From a virus, in the IMG/VR virus record IMGVR_UViG_3300027972_000007, positions 1-64,000 of that record: DNA of 64,000 nucleotides; one strand, written 5' to 3'. This document shows positions 5,735 through 61,330 of this stretch, in pieces. The first letter of the stretch is position 1, and every line of letters starts with the position of its first letter. The position numbers were made by a program, and so were the translations under genes. The notes under the pieces were generated by a model. That model was given only the letters and a program-made list of their open reading frames with translations, had not been told where the DNA came from and searched no databases.

Positions 5735-5784
5735 TTTATTTTCTTTCTTATTATAATATATATTATAGTAACAATAAAAGTCAA
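5735..5784 (-). promoter_or_regulatory. Early sigma70-type promoter cassette TTGACT-N17/18-TATATT. Other copies: minus strand with -35 at 6937-6942, 7587-7592, 10595-10600; plus strand at 50519, 61355, 61628. TTGTTT variants at 52706 and 56640
   Basis: Highly similar repeated sequence containing an exact or near TTATAATATATATTATAA palindrome, followed by a shared A-rich leader and SD. Confidence 0.85.
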
Positions 5785-22681: not shown

Positions 22682-22874
22682 TTATGAACGATAGAGTATT
22701 TGAAAACAAAGAGTTAAAAGAATTTGATTATGAAAAAATAATGGAAAGTGACGATTATAAAAAGCACAGAGAAAAAGCGCCAAGAAATAAGAAAAGTTTC
22801 AAAAGATGGGATGAAACTGTTAAAGATGGATCGATAATTCTGTAATATTATAAATAATTAAAAAGGATGGAAAT

Positions 22875-23099
22875 ATGAAGTCAGTATTAGAGTATTTAAA
22901 TGAGAGTACAAAATATGTATCAGTAGATACAAACGCATTCGAAAATGAATATGGAAAGAAACCAAAAGGAATAGCCGGATGGGCATTTAAAATTAATGGG
23001 AAAGAATTTTCTTTTAGTGGTAGTTATTCAGAAGCAGTAAAAAAAGCTAAAGAAAGAGCATCTAATATGGGTGTATATTCAATAACACTTATGATTTAA
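22875..23099 (+). CDS. CTS-leader 74-aa protein, copy 1
   Basis: MKSVLEYLNE; identical to 56707..56931. Confidence 0.8.
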   Translation: MKSVLEYLNESTKYVSVDTNAFENEYGKKPKGIAGWAFKINGKEFSFSGSYSEAVKKAKERASNMGVYSITLMI

Positions 23100-23138
23100 T
23101 ACAGTAATGATAAATAATTTTTAAATAAGGAGAAAAAC

Positions 23139-50510: not shown

Positions 50511-50587
50511 AATATTCCTTGACTTTTATTGCGTTATAATATATATTATAATAAGAAAGAAAATAAACAATTAAAAGGAGAAAATAT

Positions 50588-50908
50588 ATGAATAAGAAAG
50601 TTGTAGATTATCTGAATGAGGATGTAAAGAAAACAATAAAATTATCCGATGTCAGAAAAAAGTTGGAAGAAGAAAATGTCGGCGATCAGATAACCACAAA
50701 AAACGGTAATATATTAGTAAGAAAAGGATATTTTTATTCGAGCGGGGGTAGCGAAGAAAAATTAGCTTCCAGAATTACTCCAATTTTAGATTCTATGAAT
50801 ATTAAATACACAATAGTTGATAAAGGAAATGTATGGAGATCTTTTAAAGGCGGTGCGCCCATAGCCAAACAGTCCCATTGGTATGTAGAAATAAAAATAA
50901 ATGAATAA
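50588..50908 (+). CDS. CTS-like leader protein (MNKKV subfamily)
   Basis: MNKKVVDYLNE. Confidence 0.65.
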   Translation: MNKKVVDYLNEDVKKTIKLSDVRKKLEEENVGDQITTKNGNILVRKGYFYSSGGSEEKLASRITPILDSMNIKYTIVDKGNVWRSFKGGAPIAKQSHWYVEIKINE

Positions 50909-54922: not shown

Positions 54923-55438
54923 ATGGCTAATATATTTTTTACATCTGATACACATTTTGGTCATTTAAATAAAAGAGGAACAGGAATTATTGATTATTGT
55001 AAAAGGCCATTTAAAGATATAATAGAAATGGATAACGCATTAATTGAAAATTGGAATAGAAAAGTATCGATGTATGATATAGTATATCATTTAGGAGATT
55101 TTTCTTTTTATAATTTTTCAATAGCTAAATTAAATGGTTATATTCAATTCATAAAAGGTAATCATGATGCTAAAAAATGGCCTGATTTCGCAGTAGTAAA
55201 ATTTAAAGGAAAGAAAATATTATTACGGCATAAACCTTTTGAAAAATATGAAGATATTTCATATCCTCAATGTGATATTATATTTTGTGGGCATGTACAT
55301 GAAAAATGGCTGTTTAAAATATGTAAAAGTTTAAATAATGAAAGTAAATTAATGATAAATGTTGGAGTAGATATGTGGAATTTTGAACCAGTTACATTCG
55401 ATGAAATAATGAAAAATGTAAGAATAAGGAGTATGTGA
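54923..55438 (+). CDS. Calcineurin-like metallophosphoesterase
   Basis: SDTHFGH, LGD, GNHD, GHVH and NVGVD motifs. Confidence 0.9.
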   Translation: MANIFFTSDTHFGHLNKRGTGIIDYCKRPFKDIIEMDNALIENWNRKVSMYDIVYHLGDFSFYNFSIAKLNGYIQFIKGNHDAKKWPDFAVVKFKGKKILLRHKPFEKYEDISYPQCDIIFCGHVHEKWLFKICKSLNNESKLMINVGVDMWNFEPVTFDEIMKNVRIRSM

Positions 55439-55439
55439 T

Positions 55440-55973
55440 ATGAATAATGAACATGTAGAAATTCTTAAATCTGGTGTTGCAGAATGGAATGAGTGGAGAA
55501 AAGAAAATCATAGTGTAATTCCTGATCTGCAAGGTGCTAATCTGCGGGGTGCTAATCTGCAGGGTGCTGATCTGTGGAATGCTAATCTGCAGGATGCTGA
55601 TCTGCAGGGTGCTGATCTGTGGAATGCTAATCTGCAGGATGCTGATCTGCGGGGTGCTAATCTGCGGGGTGCATATCTTTCCCGTGCAGATCTTCTGAGA
55701 AGTCAGTATCAAATATCAAATTTATTACATGGAATATGTTGGGGCGAATTAACTAAAGAATTAACTCTCGAACTAATGCGTAGAGACGCAATAATTTGTG
55801 GAGTTGAAAAAATGAATAAATGGGCAAAAGGGCACAATTGTCCATTTAAAACAGGTTTTGAAAGGGATTTTTTCTTTAATCAAAATCAAAAAATTTGGAA
55901 ACCAGGTAAACCAAAACTTAATGATTTACAACTATTTAAAGCTTTATGTAATGTAAAGAAAATAAAGATTTGA
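55440..55973 (+). CDS. Pentapeptide-repeat protein
   Basis: WNEWRKEN..IPDL followed by A[N/D]L repeats. Confidence 0.85.
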   Translation: MNNEHVEILKSGVAEWNEWRKENHSVIPDLQGANLRGANLQGADLWNANLQDADLQGADLWNANLQDADLRGANLRGAYLSRADLLRSQYQISNLLHGICWGELTKELTLELMRRDAIICGVEKMNKWAKGHNCPFKTGFERDFFFNQNQKIWKPGKPKLNDLQLFKALCNVKKIKI

Positions 55974-56676
55974 AATGAATTACTTCTATACCCTATATAT
56001 ATAATTAAAACAAAGGAGTTGAAAGTGAAAGGTCTTTTCATAAAATTAATATTCATTTTTGTATTTGCTTTATCGTATGCTTCATTAACAGATTATATTA
56101 TATCCCATAAATTAATAACAGAAGCAAGAAGTCTAATAACGTTAGGATTTTTTATGGGAATAACATGGGCAATTATTTACGATATTATTTTTACCATCAC
56201 AAAACACAATCATTATAAATAATTAAAATAAATCTTGTTTTTATTAGAAAAATTTATTGAACATTGACAACCCCAAATTACCAGAATGATTAATGAAGCA
56301 GCAAAAGAATTCGTAGATAATAAATTTTGGGAAATTACTGAATTATTAAATTCTTTAAAAGAACAAGTTCAAAATAAAATAGAAGATAAATAAAAAGGAA
56401 TATGTGGTATGCCAATTAACACTAAAATAATAGAAATTTCAAAAAAGATTCTAAATTCTAATGGTAATATGCACGATAGAGTCGAAAAAGTAATTGAACC
56501 ATATAATTTAAGTGACGACGAATTATCTCAATTAGGATTTGAGTTAATAACTGATGTTATTTCAATTTTTTGCCAATTAAAAATTATGCGCGGAATAAAG
56601 ACTAGAAAATCACAGGGTTATAAATAATTAAAATAAATCTTGTTTTTATTAGAAAAATATATTATATTTAATGTTG

Positions 56677-56951
56677 ATATTATAAATAATTAAAAAGGAT
56701 GGAAATATGAAGTCAGTATTAGAGTATTTAAATGAGAGTACAAAATATGTATCAGTAGATACAAACGCATTCGAAAATGAATATGGAAAGAAACCAAAAG
56801 GAATAGCCGGATGGGCATTTAAAATTAATGGGAAAGAATTTTCTTTTAGTGGTAGTTATTCAGAAGCAGTAAAAAAAGCTAAAGAAAGAGCATCTAATAT
56901 GGGTGTATATTCAATAACACTTATGATTTAATACAGTAATGATAAATAATT
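56677..56951 (+). repeat. Exact 275-bp duplicate of 22845..23119, containing the 74-aa CTS gene (56707..56931)
   Basis: Base-by-base identity read by eye. Confidence 0.92.
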
Positions 56952-56967
56952 AAAAAGAGAAGATATT

Positions 56968-57093
56968 ATGATAAAAAGTACAAGACGAATTACAATTACC
57001 TCGAAACCATGTTTAACCATATCATGGCTCGAAGGTGTATTGTTTTATCATAATGATAAAGCAAATCAACCCAGAATGCTTTATATGAAATAA
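56968..57093 (+). CDS. Putative attenuator leader peptide (41 aa) containing all 20 amino acids
   Basis: MIKSTRRITITSKPCLTISWLEGVLFYHNDKANQPRMLYMK*; its 3' end pairs with the terminator 5' arm. Confidence 0.75.
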   Translation: MIKSTRRITITSKPCLTISWLEGVLFYHNDKANQPRMLYMK

Positions 57094-57117
57094 GTAAAAA
57101 ACTTATAAAATTTCATA

Positions 57118-57155
57118 TAAAGCCTTTAAAGAAGAGATTTTTTAAAGGCTTTTTT
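57118..57155 (+). terminator. Intrinsic terminator (attenuator) before the tRNA array
   Basis: AAAGCCTTTAAAGAA-GAGA-TTTTTTAAAGGCTTTTTT. Confidence 0.85.
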
Positions 57156-57158
57156 ATT

Positions 57159-57171
57159 AGTTCTTTGACAT
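57159..57171 (+). promoter_or_regulatory. boxA-like antitermination site; second copy at 58531-58543
   Basis: AGTTCTTTGACAT and AGTTCTTTGAAAA resemble rrn leader boxA. Confidence 0.6.
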
Positions 57172-57199
57172 TTATACAATTTCGCCAAGTACATTTTTT

Positions 57200-57276
57200 C
57201 GGGGCGTATTGTAATCTGGTAACACTCCTGACTTGGGATCAGGAAAGTGAGGGTTCAAATCCCTCTGTCCCGACCA
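57200..57276 (+). tRNA. tRNA-Pro(TGG)
   Basis: Cloverleaf; loop CTTGGGA; CCA. Confidence 0.9.
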
Positions 57277-57279
57277 TAT

Positions 57280-57363
57280 TGACGAGTAGTCTAATGGCAA
57301 GACAGCAGGCTGTTAACCTGCCGCAGAATAATCTGTTTGGAGGTTCGAATCCTCTCTCGTCAG
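57280..57363 (+). tRNA. tRNA-Asn(GTT) with a long variable arm
   Basis: GCAGG-CTGTTAA-CCTGC. Confidence 0.85.
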
Positions 57364-57374
57364 CTAAATTATAT

Positions 57375-57446
57375 TGCAGAGTACAGTATTGGTAACTGAG
57401 GAGCCTCATAAGCTTCTTTATATGGGTTCAAATCCCATCTCTGCTA
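57375..57446 (+). tRNA. tRNA-Met(CAT), possibly initiator (1:72 mismatch)
   Basis: Loop CTCATAA. Confidence 0.8.
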
Positions 57447-57452
57447 AATTTC

Positions 57453-57527
57453 GACTGAGTGGTGAAGTCCGGTTAACACGGTAGTCTGCAAAACTATTAT
57501 TCACAGGTTCAAATCCTGTCTCGGTCT
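57453..57527 (+). tRNA. tRNA-Cys(GCA)
   Basis: Loop CTGCAAA; U73. Confidence 0.88.
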
Positions 57528-57531
57528 TTTC

Positions 57532-57617
57532 GGAGGATTAGGATAATTGGTAATCCAACAGTCTTGAAAACTGTCGTCAGAAATGATTTGAGGGTTCGAG
57601 TCCCTTGTCCTCCGCCA
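57532..57617 (+). tRNA. tRNA-Ser(TGA)
   Basis: Loop CTTGAAA; long variable arm; CCA. Confidence 0.9.
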
Positions 57618-57625
57618 AATTATAT

Positions 57626-57701
57626 GTTGGAGGTAGTTCAAAGGTAGAACATTGGATTGTGGTTCCAATAGTTGCGGGTTCAAATCCCGTCTTCCAACCC
57701 A
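57626..57701 (+). tRNA. tRNA-His(GTG)
   Basis: Loop TTGTGGT; G-1:C73. Confidence 0.9.
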
Positions 57702-57707
57702 AAATAT

Positions 57708-57783
57708 AGCGCTGTCGCCAAGTGGTTAAGGCGCCACTCTGATAAGGTGGTATACAACGGTTCAACTCCGTTCAGCGCTACCA
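57708..57783 (+). tRNA. tRNA-Ile(GAT)
   Basis: Loop CTGATAA; CCA. Confidence 0.9.
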
Positions 57784-57789
57784 AATTTT

Positions 57790-57865
57790 GCTGGTGTAAC
57801 TCAATTGGTAGAGTAGTAGTTTTGTAAACTACAAGTTAAGTGTTCGAATCACTTCATCAGCTCCA
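57790..57865 (+). tRNA. tRNA-Thr(TGT)
   Basis: Loop TTTGTAA; CCA. Confidence 0.9.
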
Positions 57866-57873
57866 AATTACAT

Positions 57874-57948
57874 GGGTCATAACAGTCGGACGGGCGAGTT
57901 TCCTTTGCAAGGAAATTTTGATGGGTGGAACTCCCATATGATCCACCA
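57874..57948 (+). tRNA. tRNA-Ala(TGC) with non-canonical D arm and T loop
   Basis: Loop TTTGCAA; G3:U70; CCA. Confidence 0.75.
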
Positions 57949-57954
57949 AATTAA

Positions 57955-58030
57955 GCGGATATCGTTTAGTTGATAAGACCTCTGCCTTCCAAGCAGGTGA
58001 CTGCCGGTTTGAATCCGGCTATCCGCACCA
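57955..58030 (+). tRNA. tRNA-Gly(TCC)
   Basis: Loop CTTCCAA; CCA. Confidence 0.88.
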
Positions 58031-58074
58031 ATATATACAGGTTCAACTCCTGTTAATCATATTAATTTTAATAT

Positions 58075-58174
58075 ACGTCTGTAGCTCAACGAATAGAGCG
58101 CTTGGTCACGAACCAAGGACTTCTCAGCCACGAACTGAGGACTTGTGAGGGTTTGAATCCTTCCAGACGTACCA
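58075..58174 (+). tRNA. tRNA-Arg(ACG) with a duplicated anticodon arm
   Basis: Two tandem 5-bp stems, each with a YCACGAA loop; CCA. Confidence 0.8.
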
Positions 58175-58175
58175 C

Positions 58176-58252
58176 GCGACGGTCGATTAGTTGGTTAAGT
58201 CTCTGGATTGTCAATCCAGTGATCGTGGGTTCAAATCCCATTCGTCGCGCCA
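58176..58252 (+). tRNA. tRNA-Asp(GTC)
   Basis: Loop TTGTCAA; GCCA. Confidence 0.9.
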
Positions 58253-58258
58253 AATCAT

Positions 58259-58343
58259 GGAGACGTATGTTAATGGTAAACAACAGGTTTGCTAAACCTG
58301 CGTCTGAAAAGATTTCAGGGTTCAAATCCCTGCGTCCCCGCCA
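58259..58343 (+). tRNA. tRNA-Ser(GCT)
   Basis: Loop TTGCTAA; long variable arm. Confidence 0.88.
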
Positions 58344-58350
58344 AGTTTAT

Positions 58351-58423
58351 GCAGCAATATATCAATTGGTAGATAGCCACTTTGCCAAGGTGGAGGTTGC
58401 CGGTTCAAGCCCGGTTTGCTGCT
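58351..58423 (+). tRNA. tRNA-Gly(GCC)
   Basis: Loop TTGCCAA. Confidence 0.88.
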
Positions 58424-58438
58424 TTTATAAAAATTATC

Positions 58439-58528
58439 GGGCAGGAGGTCAGATATCGGTTGGCTGCACCAGACTGTAAATCTGGATTCTGTAATAGAAC
58501 GTGGAAGGTTCAACTCCTTCTCTGCCCA
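58439..58528 (+). tRNA. tRNA-Tyr(GTA)
   Basis: Loop CTGTAAA; long variable arm. Confidence 0.88.
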
Positions 58529-58545
58529 TAAGTTCTTTGAAAATT

Positions 58546-58620
58546 GCCCCCATAACTCAGATGGTTTAGAGTAATTCACTTTTAATGAATAAGTCGTCAG
58601 TTCGAATCTGACTGGGGGTA
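58546..58620 (+). tRNA. tRNA-Lys(TTT)
   Basis: Loop CTTTTAA. Confidence 0.9.
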
Positions 58621-58630
58621 TAAAATTATT

Positions 58631-58705
58631 GGGCAAGTGGCGAAATTGGTATCCGCGATAGTTTCAAAAACTATACAAATAAGAGTTCGAATCTCTTCTT
58701 GCCCA
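58631..58705 (+). tRNA. tRNA-Leu(CAA) with a short variable loop
   Basis: ATAGT-TTCAAAA-ACTAT; Leu-type D arm. Confidence 0.78.
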
Positions 58706-58715
58706 TAAAGTTTTT

Positions 58716-58797
58716 AGCCTGATGGTGGAATTGGCATACACGCAAGTCTTAGAAACTTGTTCTGAAAAGATTGAGAGTTCAAATCTCTCTCGGGCTA
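58716..58797 (+). tRNA. tRNA-Leu(TAG)
   Basis: Loop CTTAGAA; variable arm. Confidence 0.88.
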
Positions 58798-58808
58798 TAT
58801 AAATTATT

Positions 58809-58885
58809 GCTCCTGTAGCTCAAATGAATAGAGTAAGACGCTTCTAACGTCGAGGTTGCAGGTTTGAATCCTGCCAGGAGTACCA
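58809..58885 (+). tRNA. tRNA-Arg(TCT)
   Basis: Loop CTTCTAA; CCA. Confidence 0.9.
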
Positions 58886-58902
58886 TTATAAAAGAAGGAC
58901 GT

Positions 58903-59493
58903 ATGTTACAGACACTGGAATTAAATAAAGCATCAGTTCCTGTTGGAATTATATCTGCTAAAAGAGCATTAATAGCAGTATGTAATAAAAGAGCTATTGC
59001 TTTAGCAAATTATGATAAAGTTTATCATTCATCGGATTATATATGCATGGATTTGAATTTAGTAAAAGGAAAGAATTCATTAATATCAATTCCTATTCCA
59101 TCAGTCATACGATTTATTGATTCTGATTTCATGCCAAAAAGATATACAAATATTTTACCATTTAATCGCATGAATGTGTATATAAGAGATAGTGGAACTT
59201 GTTGTTATTGTGGTAAAAAAGTATCCATAAGTAATTTTACTTTTGATCATGTTATACCAAGGGCTGATGGAGGAAAAAGCTGTTGGGAAAATGTTGTGGT
59301 GAGTTGTGTAAAATGCAATAATCAAAAGGATAGAATTCCATTACATAAATTTTCAAAGAAACTTATAAAAAAACCATATGTACCACATTTAACGAAAGCA
59401 GCACCAGAACATTTAGTAAGTAGAATAGCAATGGAAATACCACATGAAACATGGTTAGATTATATTTACTGGAGAATAGAATTAGAAGAGTAA
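58903..59493 (+). CDS. HNH endonuclease
   Basis: Start revised to MLQTL; RD...CCYCG, TFDHVIPR..GG and WEN.V.SC..CN.K motifs. Confidence 0.9.
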   Translation: MLQTLELNKASVPVGIISAKRALIAVCNKRAIALANYDKVYHSSDYICMDLNLVKGKNSLISIPIPSVIRFIDSDFMPKRYTNILPFNRMNVYIRDSGTCCYCGKKVSISNFTFDHVIPRADGGKSCWENVVVSCVKCNNQKDRIPLHKFSKKLIKKPYVPHLTKAAPEHLVSRIAMEIPHETWLDYIYWRIELEE

Positions 59494-59508
59494 TTTCATG
59501 AAAAATAA

Positions 59509-59583
59509 GCTCCCGTAGTGCAGTGGTTAGCACGTCTGGTTTTCAACCAGAGAATCTCGGTTCAACTCCGGGCGGGAGTACCA
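59509..59583 (+). tRNA. tRNA-Glu(TTC)
   Basis: Loop TTTTCAA; CCA. Confidence 0.9.
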
Positions 59584-59713
59584 TATTTTAATGAAATCAC
59601 ATTTCTATTTGTTGGCTAGAGAAATAAGGATAATATTATAATTTTTAACAAAATAAATTAAATCGAAATAATAATTATTATTTTTATAAATAATTAAAAA
59701 AGGAAAGATATAC

Positions 59714-59899
59714 ATGCTCAATCAATTAAATCAAATTAAAAGTAAAGTTTGTTTGTGTGATAAAACATTAAAAGAATTAACTAAAGAATTAGATATGGAT
59801 TATAACAGTTTTATTAGAATTATTAACGGTTACCAGAAGATTCCCGAAGGATTTTTTCAAAAAGTAGAATTAGTTTTAAAAACATGGAAAGAAAAATAA
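59714..59899 (+). CDS. Small HTH protein
   Basis: TLKEL.KEL.MDY.SF..IING, an XRE-like pattern. Confidence 0.65.
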   Translation: MLNQLNQIKSKVCLCDKTLKELTKELDMDYNSFIRIINGYQKIPEGFFQKVELVLKTWKEK

Positions 59900-59900
59900 T

Positions 59901-61151
59901 ATGAGATTGGTTTATAAATTCAACTTTACTGATACTTCAGATTATTTGAATAATCTTTGTATTATTTCAAAGAATTTATATAATCAGGCCAATTATTTGA
60001 TTAAACAAGAATTAAATACTAATAAAAAGTGGTTACGTTATAATGATTTAGATAAAATAATGAAAGTAACTAAAAATCTTGAAAGTAATATTAATTATAG
60101 ATTACTTAAATCTCATGTTGCTCAACAATGTTTAAAGTTATTAGATAAAAATTGGTCGTCTTTTTTTATGTCAATTAAATGTTGGAAAGCAAATAAAGAT
60201 AATTATAAGGGTATGCCCAAATCACCTTATTATCTTAAAAAAGATAAGAATTTATTAATATATACTAATCAAGTTTCTAAAATAAAAGATAATAAAATTT
60301 ATCTTTCTAAAGATTTTACTATAGATATACCTAAGTATAAAGATTTTAGTAAATTTCAACAGATAAGAGTATTACCTACATATATCAAAAATCAATTTGA
60401 AGTAGAGATAATTTATAATCAAGACATAAAGAATGAAAATCTGAATTATGATAAGTATTCTTCTATTGATTTAGGATTAAATAATTTGGTGTCTTTAGTT
60501 TCCGAAAACAAACCAATATTAATTAATGGAAATATACTTAAATCATATAATCAATTATACAATAAACAAAAAGCTAAATTATATTCAGTTAAAGATAAAA
60601 TGAAGAATAAACATTACACAAGGAGACTATATGAGTTAGAAAAGAATAGAAATAATTACGTCAAAGATTATTTACACAAAGTTTCAAGATTAATGATTAA
60701 TTATTTAATTAAGAATAAGATTGGTAATTTAGTTATAGGTCACAATAAACAATGGAAAGACTCCATTAATATAGGGCATAAAAATAACCAGGCTTTTGTT
60801 ACTATTCCTCATTCACAATTAATTAATTATTTAACATATAAATCTGAACTTTGTGGTATTAAGGTGCAAGAAGTTGAAGAGAGTTATACATCTAAATGTG
60901 ATTCTTTAGCTAATGAAACTATAGAAAAACATGAAGTATATTTAGGAAAAAGAATAAAAAGAGGATTATTTCAAAGTTCGTCAAGAAAATTAATTAATGC
61001 AGATGTTAATGGAGCTTTGAATATAATGAGAAAAGTAGTTGGTAATTCTTATGCAAATAAGATAATCAATAGTGGGTTCTTGTTTAACCCAGTAAAGATA
61101 AGGAATCTGTTTTCAAACTCTTTGCAAACTTGTTTATTAAAGATAACATGA
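59901..61151 (+). mobile_element. tnpB: TnpB-family RNA-guided nuclease with rearranged RuvC-II; no TnpA
   Basis: LYNQANY, SIDLGLNNL, DYLHK.SR, VIGHN, EESYTSKC and NADVNGALNI motifs. Confidence 0.9.
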
Positions 61152-61170
61152 GTGAGACGCTCTAAATTAT

Positions 61171-61246
61171 TGGGATGTCGCCAAACGGTTAAGGCACTGG
61201 ACTTTGAATCCAGTATTTGAAGGTTCGAATCCTTCCATCCCAGCCA
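61171..61246 (+). tRNA. tRNA-Gln(TTG)
   Basis: Loop CTTTGAA; GCCA. Confidence 0.9.
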
Positions 61247-61254
61247 TTCTTTAC

Positions 61255-61330
61255 ATAAGCGTAATTCAATTGGTAGAATACTGGTCTCCAAAACCAGCAG
61301 TTAAGAGTTCGAGTCTCTTCGCTTATGCCA
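61255..61330 (+). tRNA. tRNA-Trp(CCA)
   Basis: Loop CTCCAAA; GCCA. Confidence 0.9.

Follow-up and report, generated by a model that had tools for sequence, protein, structure and literature searches.

A short leader ahead of the tRNA array of this T4-like myovirus has the layout of a ribosome-mediated leader-peptide transcription attenuator, which would gate read-through into the tRNA genes; judged from one sequence without relatives, we give this reading about an even chance of being correct. Such an element would extend a known mechanism, in a pan-amino-acid form, to viral tRNA genes. The features concerned, all on the plus strand and numbered within the window (the whole stretch of DNA that was analysed, comprising the first 64 kb of a record of 170,170 bp), are as follows.

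56941–56957, plus strand: late-promoter-like motif GATAAATAATTAAAAAG, of the T4-type TATAAATA class and extended by a conserved AATTAAAA; recurs before about 15 other genes
56957–56962, plus strand: ribosome-binding site GAGAAG, 5 nt ahead of the ATG (word enrichment, spacing in neighbouring genes)
56968–57093, plus strand: 41-codon leader ORF, residues 15–37 of which include all 20 amino acids (translation, composition counts)
57001–57032, plus strand: intra-ORF hairpin, −8.3 kcal/mol; candidate pause site (folding)
57040–57064, plus strand: hairpin sequestering region 1, 11 bp (57040–57050 with 57054–57064) and a 3-nt loop (folding)
57046–57066, plus strand: codons 27–33 (Tyr His Asn Asp Lys Ala Asn), the stalls predicted most to favour the antiterminator (masked folding)
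57056–57084, plus strand: region 1:2 helix AUAAAGCA/UGCUUUAU, −7.2 kcal/mol, pairing 57056–57063 with 57077–57084 (folding)
57078–57123, plus strand: antiterminator candidate H1 (2:3), perfect 14-bp arms 57078–57091/57110–57123 plus an inner 6-bp stem, −15.7 kcal/mol (inverted repeat, folding)
57119–57158, plus strand: intrinsic terminator (3:4), 15-bp stem 57119–57133/57138–57152, GAGA loop and U tract, −15.5 kcal/mol (terminator prediction, folding)
57159–57171, plus strand: AGTTCTTTGACAT motif, with a second copy, AGTTCTTTGAAAA, at 58531 (genome repeat scan)
57200–61330, plus strand: array of about 22 tRNAs for 19 amino acids (Val and Phe are missing), with an HNH gene and an HTH + TnpB pair inserted among them (ARAGORN, Rfam, folding)

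Genome setting and phage promoters

The record has a GC content of 27.7%, and the window encodes the tail sheath, baseplate proteins and large terminase of the phage; the terminase is at most about 36% identical to those of named phages, the nearest being cyanobacterial T4-like phages. Almost all genes between 10.8 and 66.9 kb are on the plus strand, forming a 56-kb co-directional block, of which the part at 50–57 kb is a series of small genes that each have their own promoter cassette.

The late promoters of the phage carry a T4-type motif, TATAAATAATTAAAA, situated 23–42 nt before about 15 start codons, including those of the tail sheath and other structural genes. The leader ORF has the same arrangement of promoter motif and ribosome-binding site as these ~15 other genes, and this standard layout is one of the points in favour of an attenuator. 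Its late motif, at 56941, starts with G because a 275-bp duplication ends within the motif. The early promoters are elements of ~45 nt (consensus AAATAcTTCTTGACTTTTATTGnnnTATAATATATATTATAATAG) in which CTTGACT is followed by TATAATATATATTATAAT; about 17 highly conserved copies occur genome-wide, among them those at 50519, 61355 and 61628 on the plus strand and at 5784, 6942, 7592 and 10600 on the minus strand, and their conservation extends far beyond the needs of a sigma-70 promoter. The MotA/AsiA families of middle promoters had no match in the record, and the control searches were equally empty.

Repeated cassettes are found close to the leader. The 275-bp exact duplicate occupies 56677–56951 and 22845–23119 of the window and carries a 74-aa gene (MKSVLEYLNES...); both of its ends fall inside late-promoter motifs, and one copy lies ahead of the tail sheath gene while the other lies directly ahead of the leader ORF, a pattern suggestive of promoter-mediated shuffling of cassettes. 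At 56213–56258 and 56618–56663, a 46-nt repeat with 98% identity links a late-promoter motif to a degenerate early-promoter copy (CTTGTTTTTATTAGAAAAAT.TATT). Several otherwise unrelated small proteins (window positions 50588, 51328, 51659 and 56707, and also 22877) begin with a common M(N/K)K.V.(D/E)YLNE sequence reminiscent of the cleavable leaders by which T4 internal proteins are targeted to the capsid, and their genes adjoin tRNA genes, as in T4. Also in this region, a pentapeptide-repeat protein in which ANLQGADLW-type units follow one another (55440–55973) sits beside a calcineurin-like phosphoesterase (54923–55438).

A 41-codon frame with all 20 amino acids

Translation of 56968–57093 gives the 41 residues of the original prediction, and a residue count confirms that positions 15–37, 23 residues in all, include every one of the 20 amino acids. 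With the amino-acid frequencies of this phage, the probability of drawing 20 amino acids in 23 draws is 1.25 × 10−7 per window, and the composition chance for the whole leader ORF is ~2 × 10−6. Among the 101,172 stop-free windows of 23 residues in the six frames of the 170-kb genome, the leader is the only one with all 20, and none of 658,389 such windows in 795 kb of other phage loci has this property. So rare a composition argues for an attenuator, and the full set of residues may have been selected; the test is post hoc, made within a very large scan, in which a chance all-20 window beside a tRNA array is unlikely but not impossible. The ORF also has the 29 distinct codons ascribed to it, a diversity that puts it among the highest 2.3% when 41-codon windows of real genes are ranked.

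In other respects the frame resembles an ordinary gene of this phage and is presumably translated. Its codon adaptation (18th percentile) and GC content are ordinary, AGAGAA-type words like its ribosome-binding site are enriched ~6-fold upstream of genes in this genome, and the spacing of that site from the start codon is the one seen in neighbouring genes. We estimate that a 41-codon frame would stay open by chance in ~3% of cases at this AT content. Residue diversity is also high in frames through structured RNA, reaching 18 different residues in 23 positions at ~58435, within tRNA genes.

The match between the leader and the array is one of amino acids. All 19 array amino acids are present in the leader within 23 codons, with Val and Phe as leader extras. 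A further match at the level of codons is not supported: 31 of the 41 codons match an array anticodon, against a genome baseline of 73%. Both the baseline level of this codon–anticodon match and the presence of Val and Phe in a leader whose array has no tRNAs for them tell against an attenuator.

Overlapping helices between the leader and the tRNAs

Alternative helices form a chain through the transcript, running from the start region through the 57040 hairpin and the 1:2 helix to H1 (2:3) and the terminator (3:4). The hairpin foreseen at 57001–57032 does fold, at the free energy listed above. Further on, 57043–57054 can alternatively pair with the start-codon region (56965–56976), and the 1:2 helix competes with the antiterminator for region 2. 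As predicted, GCTTTATATGAAAT (57078–57091) is the perfect reverse complement of ATTTCATATAAAGC (57110–57123), and the repeat is overlapped by a GNRA-capped terminator, which we place at 57119–57152 with its 15-bp stem, GAGA loop and U tract. The stop codon, TAA at 57091–57093, is at the top of the 5′ arm of H1, a position that favours the attenuator reading.

H1 and the terminator share 5 nt, AAAGC (57119–57123). A genome-wide count of perfect hairpins with stems of at least 12 bp and loops of at most 30 nt yielded 12, of which these two, overlapping by the shared 5 nt, are a sixth; the chance expectation for hairpins with a 14-bp stem is estimated at ~0.2–0.3 for the whole genome. The folding z-score is −8.0 for 57040–57152 and −6.9 for 56950–57175. 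That two of the 12 strong hairpins in 170 kb overlap here, in a segment with a z-score of −8.0, again supports an attenuator. The body of the leader (56960–57075) has z-scores of −3.4 to −3.6, similar to one of six control coding windows. No further copy of the leader, H1 or the spacer occurs within the genome, and Rfam returned no family in 56900–57200 at E ≤ 1.

The competition between the two hairpins is only partial. H1 contests just five of the 15 terminator pairs, the two hairpins are equally stable and can coexist in trimmed form, and the two arrangements, a full H1 with a 10-bp terminator or a 9-bp H1 with a full terminator, lie 0.3 kcal/mol apart (−20.6 against −20.3 kcal/mol). The residual 10-bp stem together with GCUUUUUU might still terminate.

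Predicted behaviour of the proposed switch

In the mechanism that we envisage, the 41-codon ORF would be carried by transcripts initiated at 50519 (early promoter) and at 56682 and 56942 (late promoters). A ribosome at the stop codon would cover ~57076–57105, so that the 5′ arm of H1 would be unavailable, the full 15-bp terminator would form and transcription would end at ~57155. A ribosome stalled earlier, most clearly at codons 27–33, would cover region 1 instead, allowing H1 to form; H1 would then take up the AAAGC that the terminator needs beside its U tract, termination would be weakened and polymerase would enter the tRNA genes. With no translation, region 1 would pair with region 2 and the terminator would form. 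As every amino acid is in the leader, the element would report general tRNA or charging supply, not that of one amino acid.

We modelled these states by ribosome-masked folding of 56955–57152, taking as readout the five bottom pairs of the terminator, next to the U tract. The bottom-pair probability is 0.85 without a ribosome and 0.87–0.90 with a ribosome at codons 35–42; a mask at the stop codon gives a probability of 0 for H1 and 0.9 for the terminator, in agreement with the prediction that a ribosome at the stop masks the antiterminator and lets the terminator form. For a stall at codons 27–33 the value drops to 0.33–0.61. Stalls at codons 2–20 give 0.58–0.67 when the 5′ part is held unfolded, as by queued ribosomes, and stalls at codons 21–26 leave it near the unstalled values.

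Folding with and without masking thus reproduces the three states of a classical attenuator, which favours that reading, but the amplitude is modest and the sensitivity uneven. The proposal that stalling at nearly every codon as far as codon 32 would free the antiterminator is not upheld, as codons 21–26 and 34–41 are blind at equilibrium. Early stalls are sensed in part: codons 27–33 give partial antitermination, but codons 2–20 do so only if the 5′ part stays unfolded. The switch is weak in the model because H1 competes for no more than five of the 15 terminator pairs and so little energy separates the two arrangements; a predicted change of only 0.9 to 0.33–0.6 from nearly isoenergetic arrangements counts against an attenuator, although the 5-nt competition may nonetheless alter termination in vivo. 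The insensitivity of codons 21–26 and 34–41 likewise weakens the case that all 20 residues in codons 15–37 serve a purpose.

The tRNA array and its possible need for read-through

The array, which opens with tRNA-Pro at 57200, was predicted to hold 22 tRNAs, and about that number are found: 19 called by ARAGORN, two more by Rfam, and a cloverleaf at 57873–57949. This last has an anticodon loop with UGC (Ala), a CCA end and an atypical T loop (UGGAACU), and is called as a tRNA by neither ARAGORN nor Rfam. The tRNA at 58075–58171 (Rfam, 47 bits) has two consecutive anticodon-arm-like hairpins with an ACG-containing loop in each, and ARAGORN calls it only under an intron model. Between the array tRNAs are an HNH endonuclease gene (58903–59493) and an HTH ORF with a TnpB of the OrfB_IS605 family (59714–61151); a late-promoter motif at 59686 belongs to these inserted genes. 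Elsewhere in the genome, outside the window, Leu(UAA) at 75361–75448 on the minus strand and a second CAU tRNA (tRNA-Met) at 145622–145699 on the plus strand lie directly after ORFs, with no leader or terminator.

The terminator at 57119 is the only strong plus-strand intrinsic terminator in the 10.8–66.9 kb block, and the placing of the sole such terminator of 56 kb immediately before the tRNAs is a further argument for an attenuator. Neither of the early (~17 copies) and late promoter classes of the phage occurs in 57153–57199 or in the array before 59686, which points the same way; promoter types of the host may differ, and a promoter of unrecognised class before tRNA-Pro is possible. A TTGACA at 57165 has no usable −10 at a workable distance, and its start site would fall inside tRNA-Pro. 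The 10-mer AGTTCTTTGA that includes this motif has three genome copies, two of them in array spacers (57159–57168 and 58531–58540), and the second of these stands 5 nt before tRNA-Lys, a position in which no promoter could function. Since the motif recurs where a promoter is impossible, AGTTCTTTGACAT/AGTTCTTTGA probably acts at the RNA level and not as a −35 box, which fits transcripts entering from upstream; it could be a processing or antitermination signal. Of the 13 positions of the rrn boxA consensus, 9 agree with the AGTTCTTTGA motif.

Relatives and precedents

Searches for relatives of the leader and its surroundings were largely empty. A word-indexed search of 5.8 billion proteins matched the 41-aa peptide only to itself, and HMMER matches among 1.84 billion representatives were rejected as spurious, being to multi-repeat proteins. 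The leader has no DNA similarity to named phages, and the array gives only generic tRNA matches to them. Relatives of the phosphoesterase are 43–48% identical at best and show no synteny to tRNA arrays; relatives of the sheath, 54–60% identical, are on short contigs only; a terminase pattern scan for relatives gave no match; and exact words of tRNA-Pro had none in viral and metagenome contigs. The early-promoter pattern had no match in viral contigs, and its 11 matches in metagenome contigs are unrelated and were discarded as chance. The only other contig that carries the leader ORF is identical in sequence, with no micro-diversity. An element known from a single sequence, with no peptide homologue and no relative of the phage region in the collections searched, is to that extent a weaker candidate for an attenuator.

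A scan ahead of other phage tRNA arrays, where comparable leaders had been anticipated, was successful in Caulobacter phage phiCbK (NC_019405), whose leaders are matched in composition to their tRNAs, but not in the other loci. Gene product gp335 of phiCbK is a 45-aa peptide, 70% of it Pro, Lys, Leu, Ala and Ser, followed by an annotated terminator and then by a tRNA block that reads Pro-Pro-Lys-Lys-Leu-Leu-Leu-Ala-Ser-Ser. Similarly, a 32-aa ORF containing RQFVRQIQVVRNI is followed by an annotated terminator and the block Phe-Val-Ile-Ile-Val-Gln-Gln. As in the present phage, promoter region, short ORF, intrinsic terminator and tRNA block follow one another on one strand, and the amino acids of the ORF mirror the tRNAs behind it. 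In contrast, phiCbK has several blocks, each leader being biased to the few amino acids of its own block, whereas here a single 19-amino-acid array stands behind a single all-20 leader. The two phages are unrelated and without sequence similarity, and phiCbK is likened to this phage on order and composition. As its leaders match their blocks, an array for 19 amino acids should have a near-complete leader, as is seen here, and the phiCbK leaders are in this sense a precedent that favours an attenuator. KVP40 and Aeh1, which are T4-like with large arrays, and four unrelated metagenomic loci have no convincing analogue; the leader-before-tRNA arrangement is therefore not universal among phages, and the want of a convincing analogue in KVP40 and Aeh1 is a point against an attenuator. 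Our literature search found no published account of leader-peptide attenuation on tRNA genes, or of leaders of the phiCbK type.

The closest functional parallels are the classical attenuators (trpL, hisL, pheL, thrL and the multivalent ilvGMEDA). Like these, the present element has a short ORF, presumably translated, whose stop codon lies at region 2, and successive 1:2, 2:3 and 3:4 helices of which 3:4 is an intrinsic terminator; its predicted logic also has three states, with termination when untranslated, read-through upon a stall in region 1 and termination after full translation. Unlike these, it has all 20 amino acids once or a few times where classical leaders have codon runs for one or a few, and the lack of a regulatory-codon run sets it apart from the standard class. 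It would control viral tRNA genes instead of biosynthetic enzymes, its antiterminator overlaps only five of 15 terminator pairs, and a phage late promoter drives it.

Two other regulatory classes share part of this design. T-box riboswitches also sense tRNA charging and set an antiterminator against a terminator upstream of translation-related genes, but they bind uncharged tRNA directly via a specifier codon and have no leader ORF, whereas a leader ORF is present here; a T-box was rejected, there being no Rfam match in 56900–57200 at E ≤ 1. In attenuators of the pyrBI type, termination is likewise set by the distance between ribosome and polymerase on a leader ORF of ~40 codons. In pyrBI the leader ORF extends across the terminator, and a ribosome close behind the polymerase prevents termination; the present ORF, in contrast, stops short of its terminator, and termination should be favoured when a ribosome is at the stop codon.

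Alternative explanations

The main rival to the attenuator, to which we accord a lesser but appreciable probability, supposes a small late gene, an orphan but otherwise ordinary, and behind it the terminator closing a long late unit; the array would be transcribed by polymerases that leak past this terminator or start at an unrecognised promoter, and the composition and the overlap would be coincidental, or H1 would stabilize the 3′ end of the mRNA. Such a gene would be at home in the 50–57 kb series of small genes with their own promoter cassettes, its codon usage and GC content are ordinary, and the terminator is placed where one would be expected at the end of an operon. The overlap of just 5 nt between hairpins that can coexist when trimmed, and the −35-like TTGACA after the terminator, are also what this rival would predict. 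However, it requires two independent rare events at one site, namely the composition (~2 × 10−6) and the overlap of two of the 12 strongest hairpins, and it leaves ~20 tRNA genes without a recognisable promoter, as the TTGACA lacks a workable −10, would start transcription in tRNA-Pro and recurs where a promoter is impossible.

It is less plausible, and on the whole unlikely, that the stretch between the late promoter and the terminator specifies a structured non-coding RNA of ~200 nt, or an element for processing or stability of the tRNA precursor, the open frame being incidental to a base composition more even than in the rest of the genome. In T4, genes for stable small RNAs adjoin those for tRNAs, and both the strong folding (z-scores of −6.9 for 56950–57175 and −3.4 to −3.6 for the ORF body) and the residue diversity of frames through tRNA genes (18 of 23 at ~58435) are consistent with such an RNA. 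Against it are the start codon with its standard ribosome-binding site and spacing, the ~3% estimate for a 41-codon frame open by chance, the one control coding window of six with a similar z-score and the empty Rfam search of 56900–57200 at E ≤ 1; nor are the two readings exclusive, since terminated attenuator RNAs can serve as small RNAs. We regard as very improbable a third possibility, that H1 is a palindrome acting at the DNA level, marking a boundary of recombination or of a cassette, or binding a protein, within a hyperplastic region and without a part in transcription control. Recent cassette shuffling nearby, seen in the 275-bp exact duplicate bounded by promoter motifs and the 46-nt repeated promoter cassette, speaks for it, but H1 has no other genome copy, the duplication boundaries lie in promoter motifs and not in H1, and there would be no explanation of why H1 and the terminator share precisely 5 nt or why the stop codon lies where it does.

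Implications for viral tRNA genes

Returning to the attenuator, its broadest form is that of a pan-amino-acid, general sensor of tRNA supply, through which the phage would switch on its 22-tRNA operon late, when host defence or shut-off depletes tRNAs; this extension we advance only tentatively, and rather doubt. The codons that our folding model makes most sensitive to stalling, TAT, CAT, AAT, GAT and AAA (Tyr, His, Asn, Asp and Lys), would be the codons of anticodon-nuclease targets: enzymes of the colicin E5 type cut tRNAs for Tyr, His, Asn and Asp, and those of the PrrC type cut tRNA for Lys.

To explain why large phages carry tRNA arrays and how these are timed in their expression, current ideas invoke codon compensation, a late supply of tRNAs in place of degraded host ones, and evasion of anticodon nucleases. 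If the sensor reading is true, the speed of leader translation would set read-through, giving a direct feedback from decoding capacity to tRNA synthesis within a self-contained candidate element of ~200 nt. The all-20 leader would then be the first attenuator to report overall translation supply rather than that of a single amino acid, and, together with leaders of the phiCbK type, it would represent an undescribed, convergent principle for the control of viral tRNA genes.
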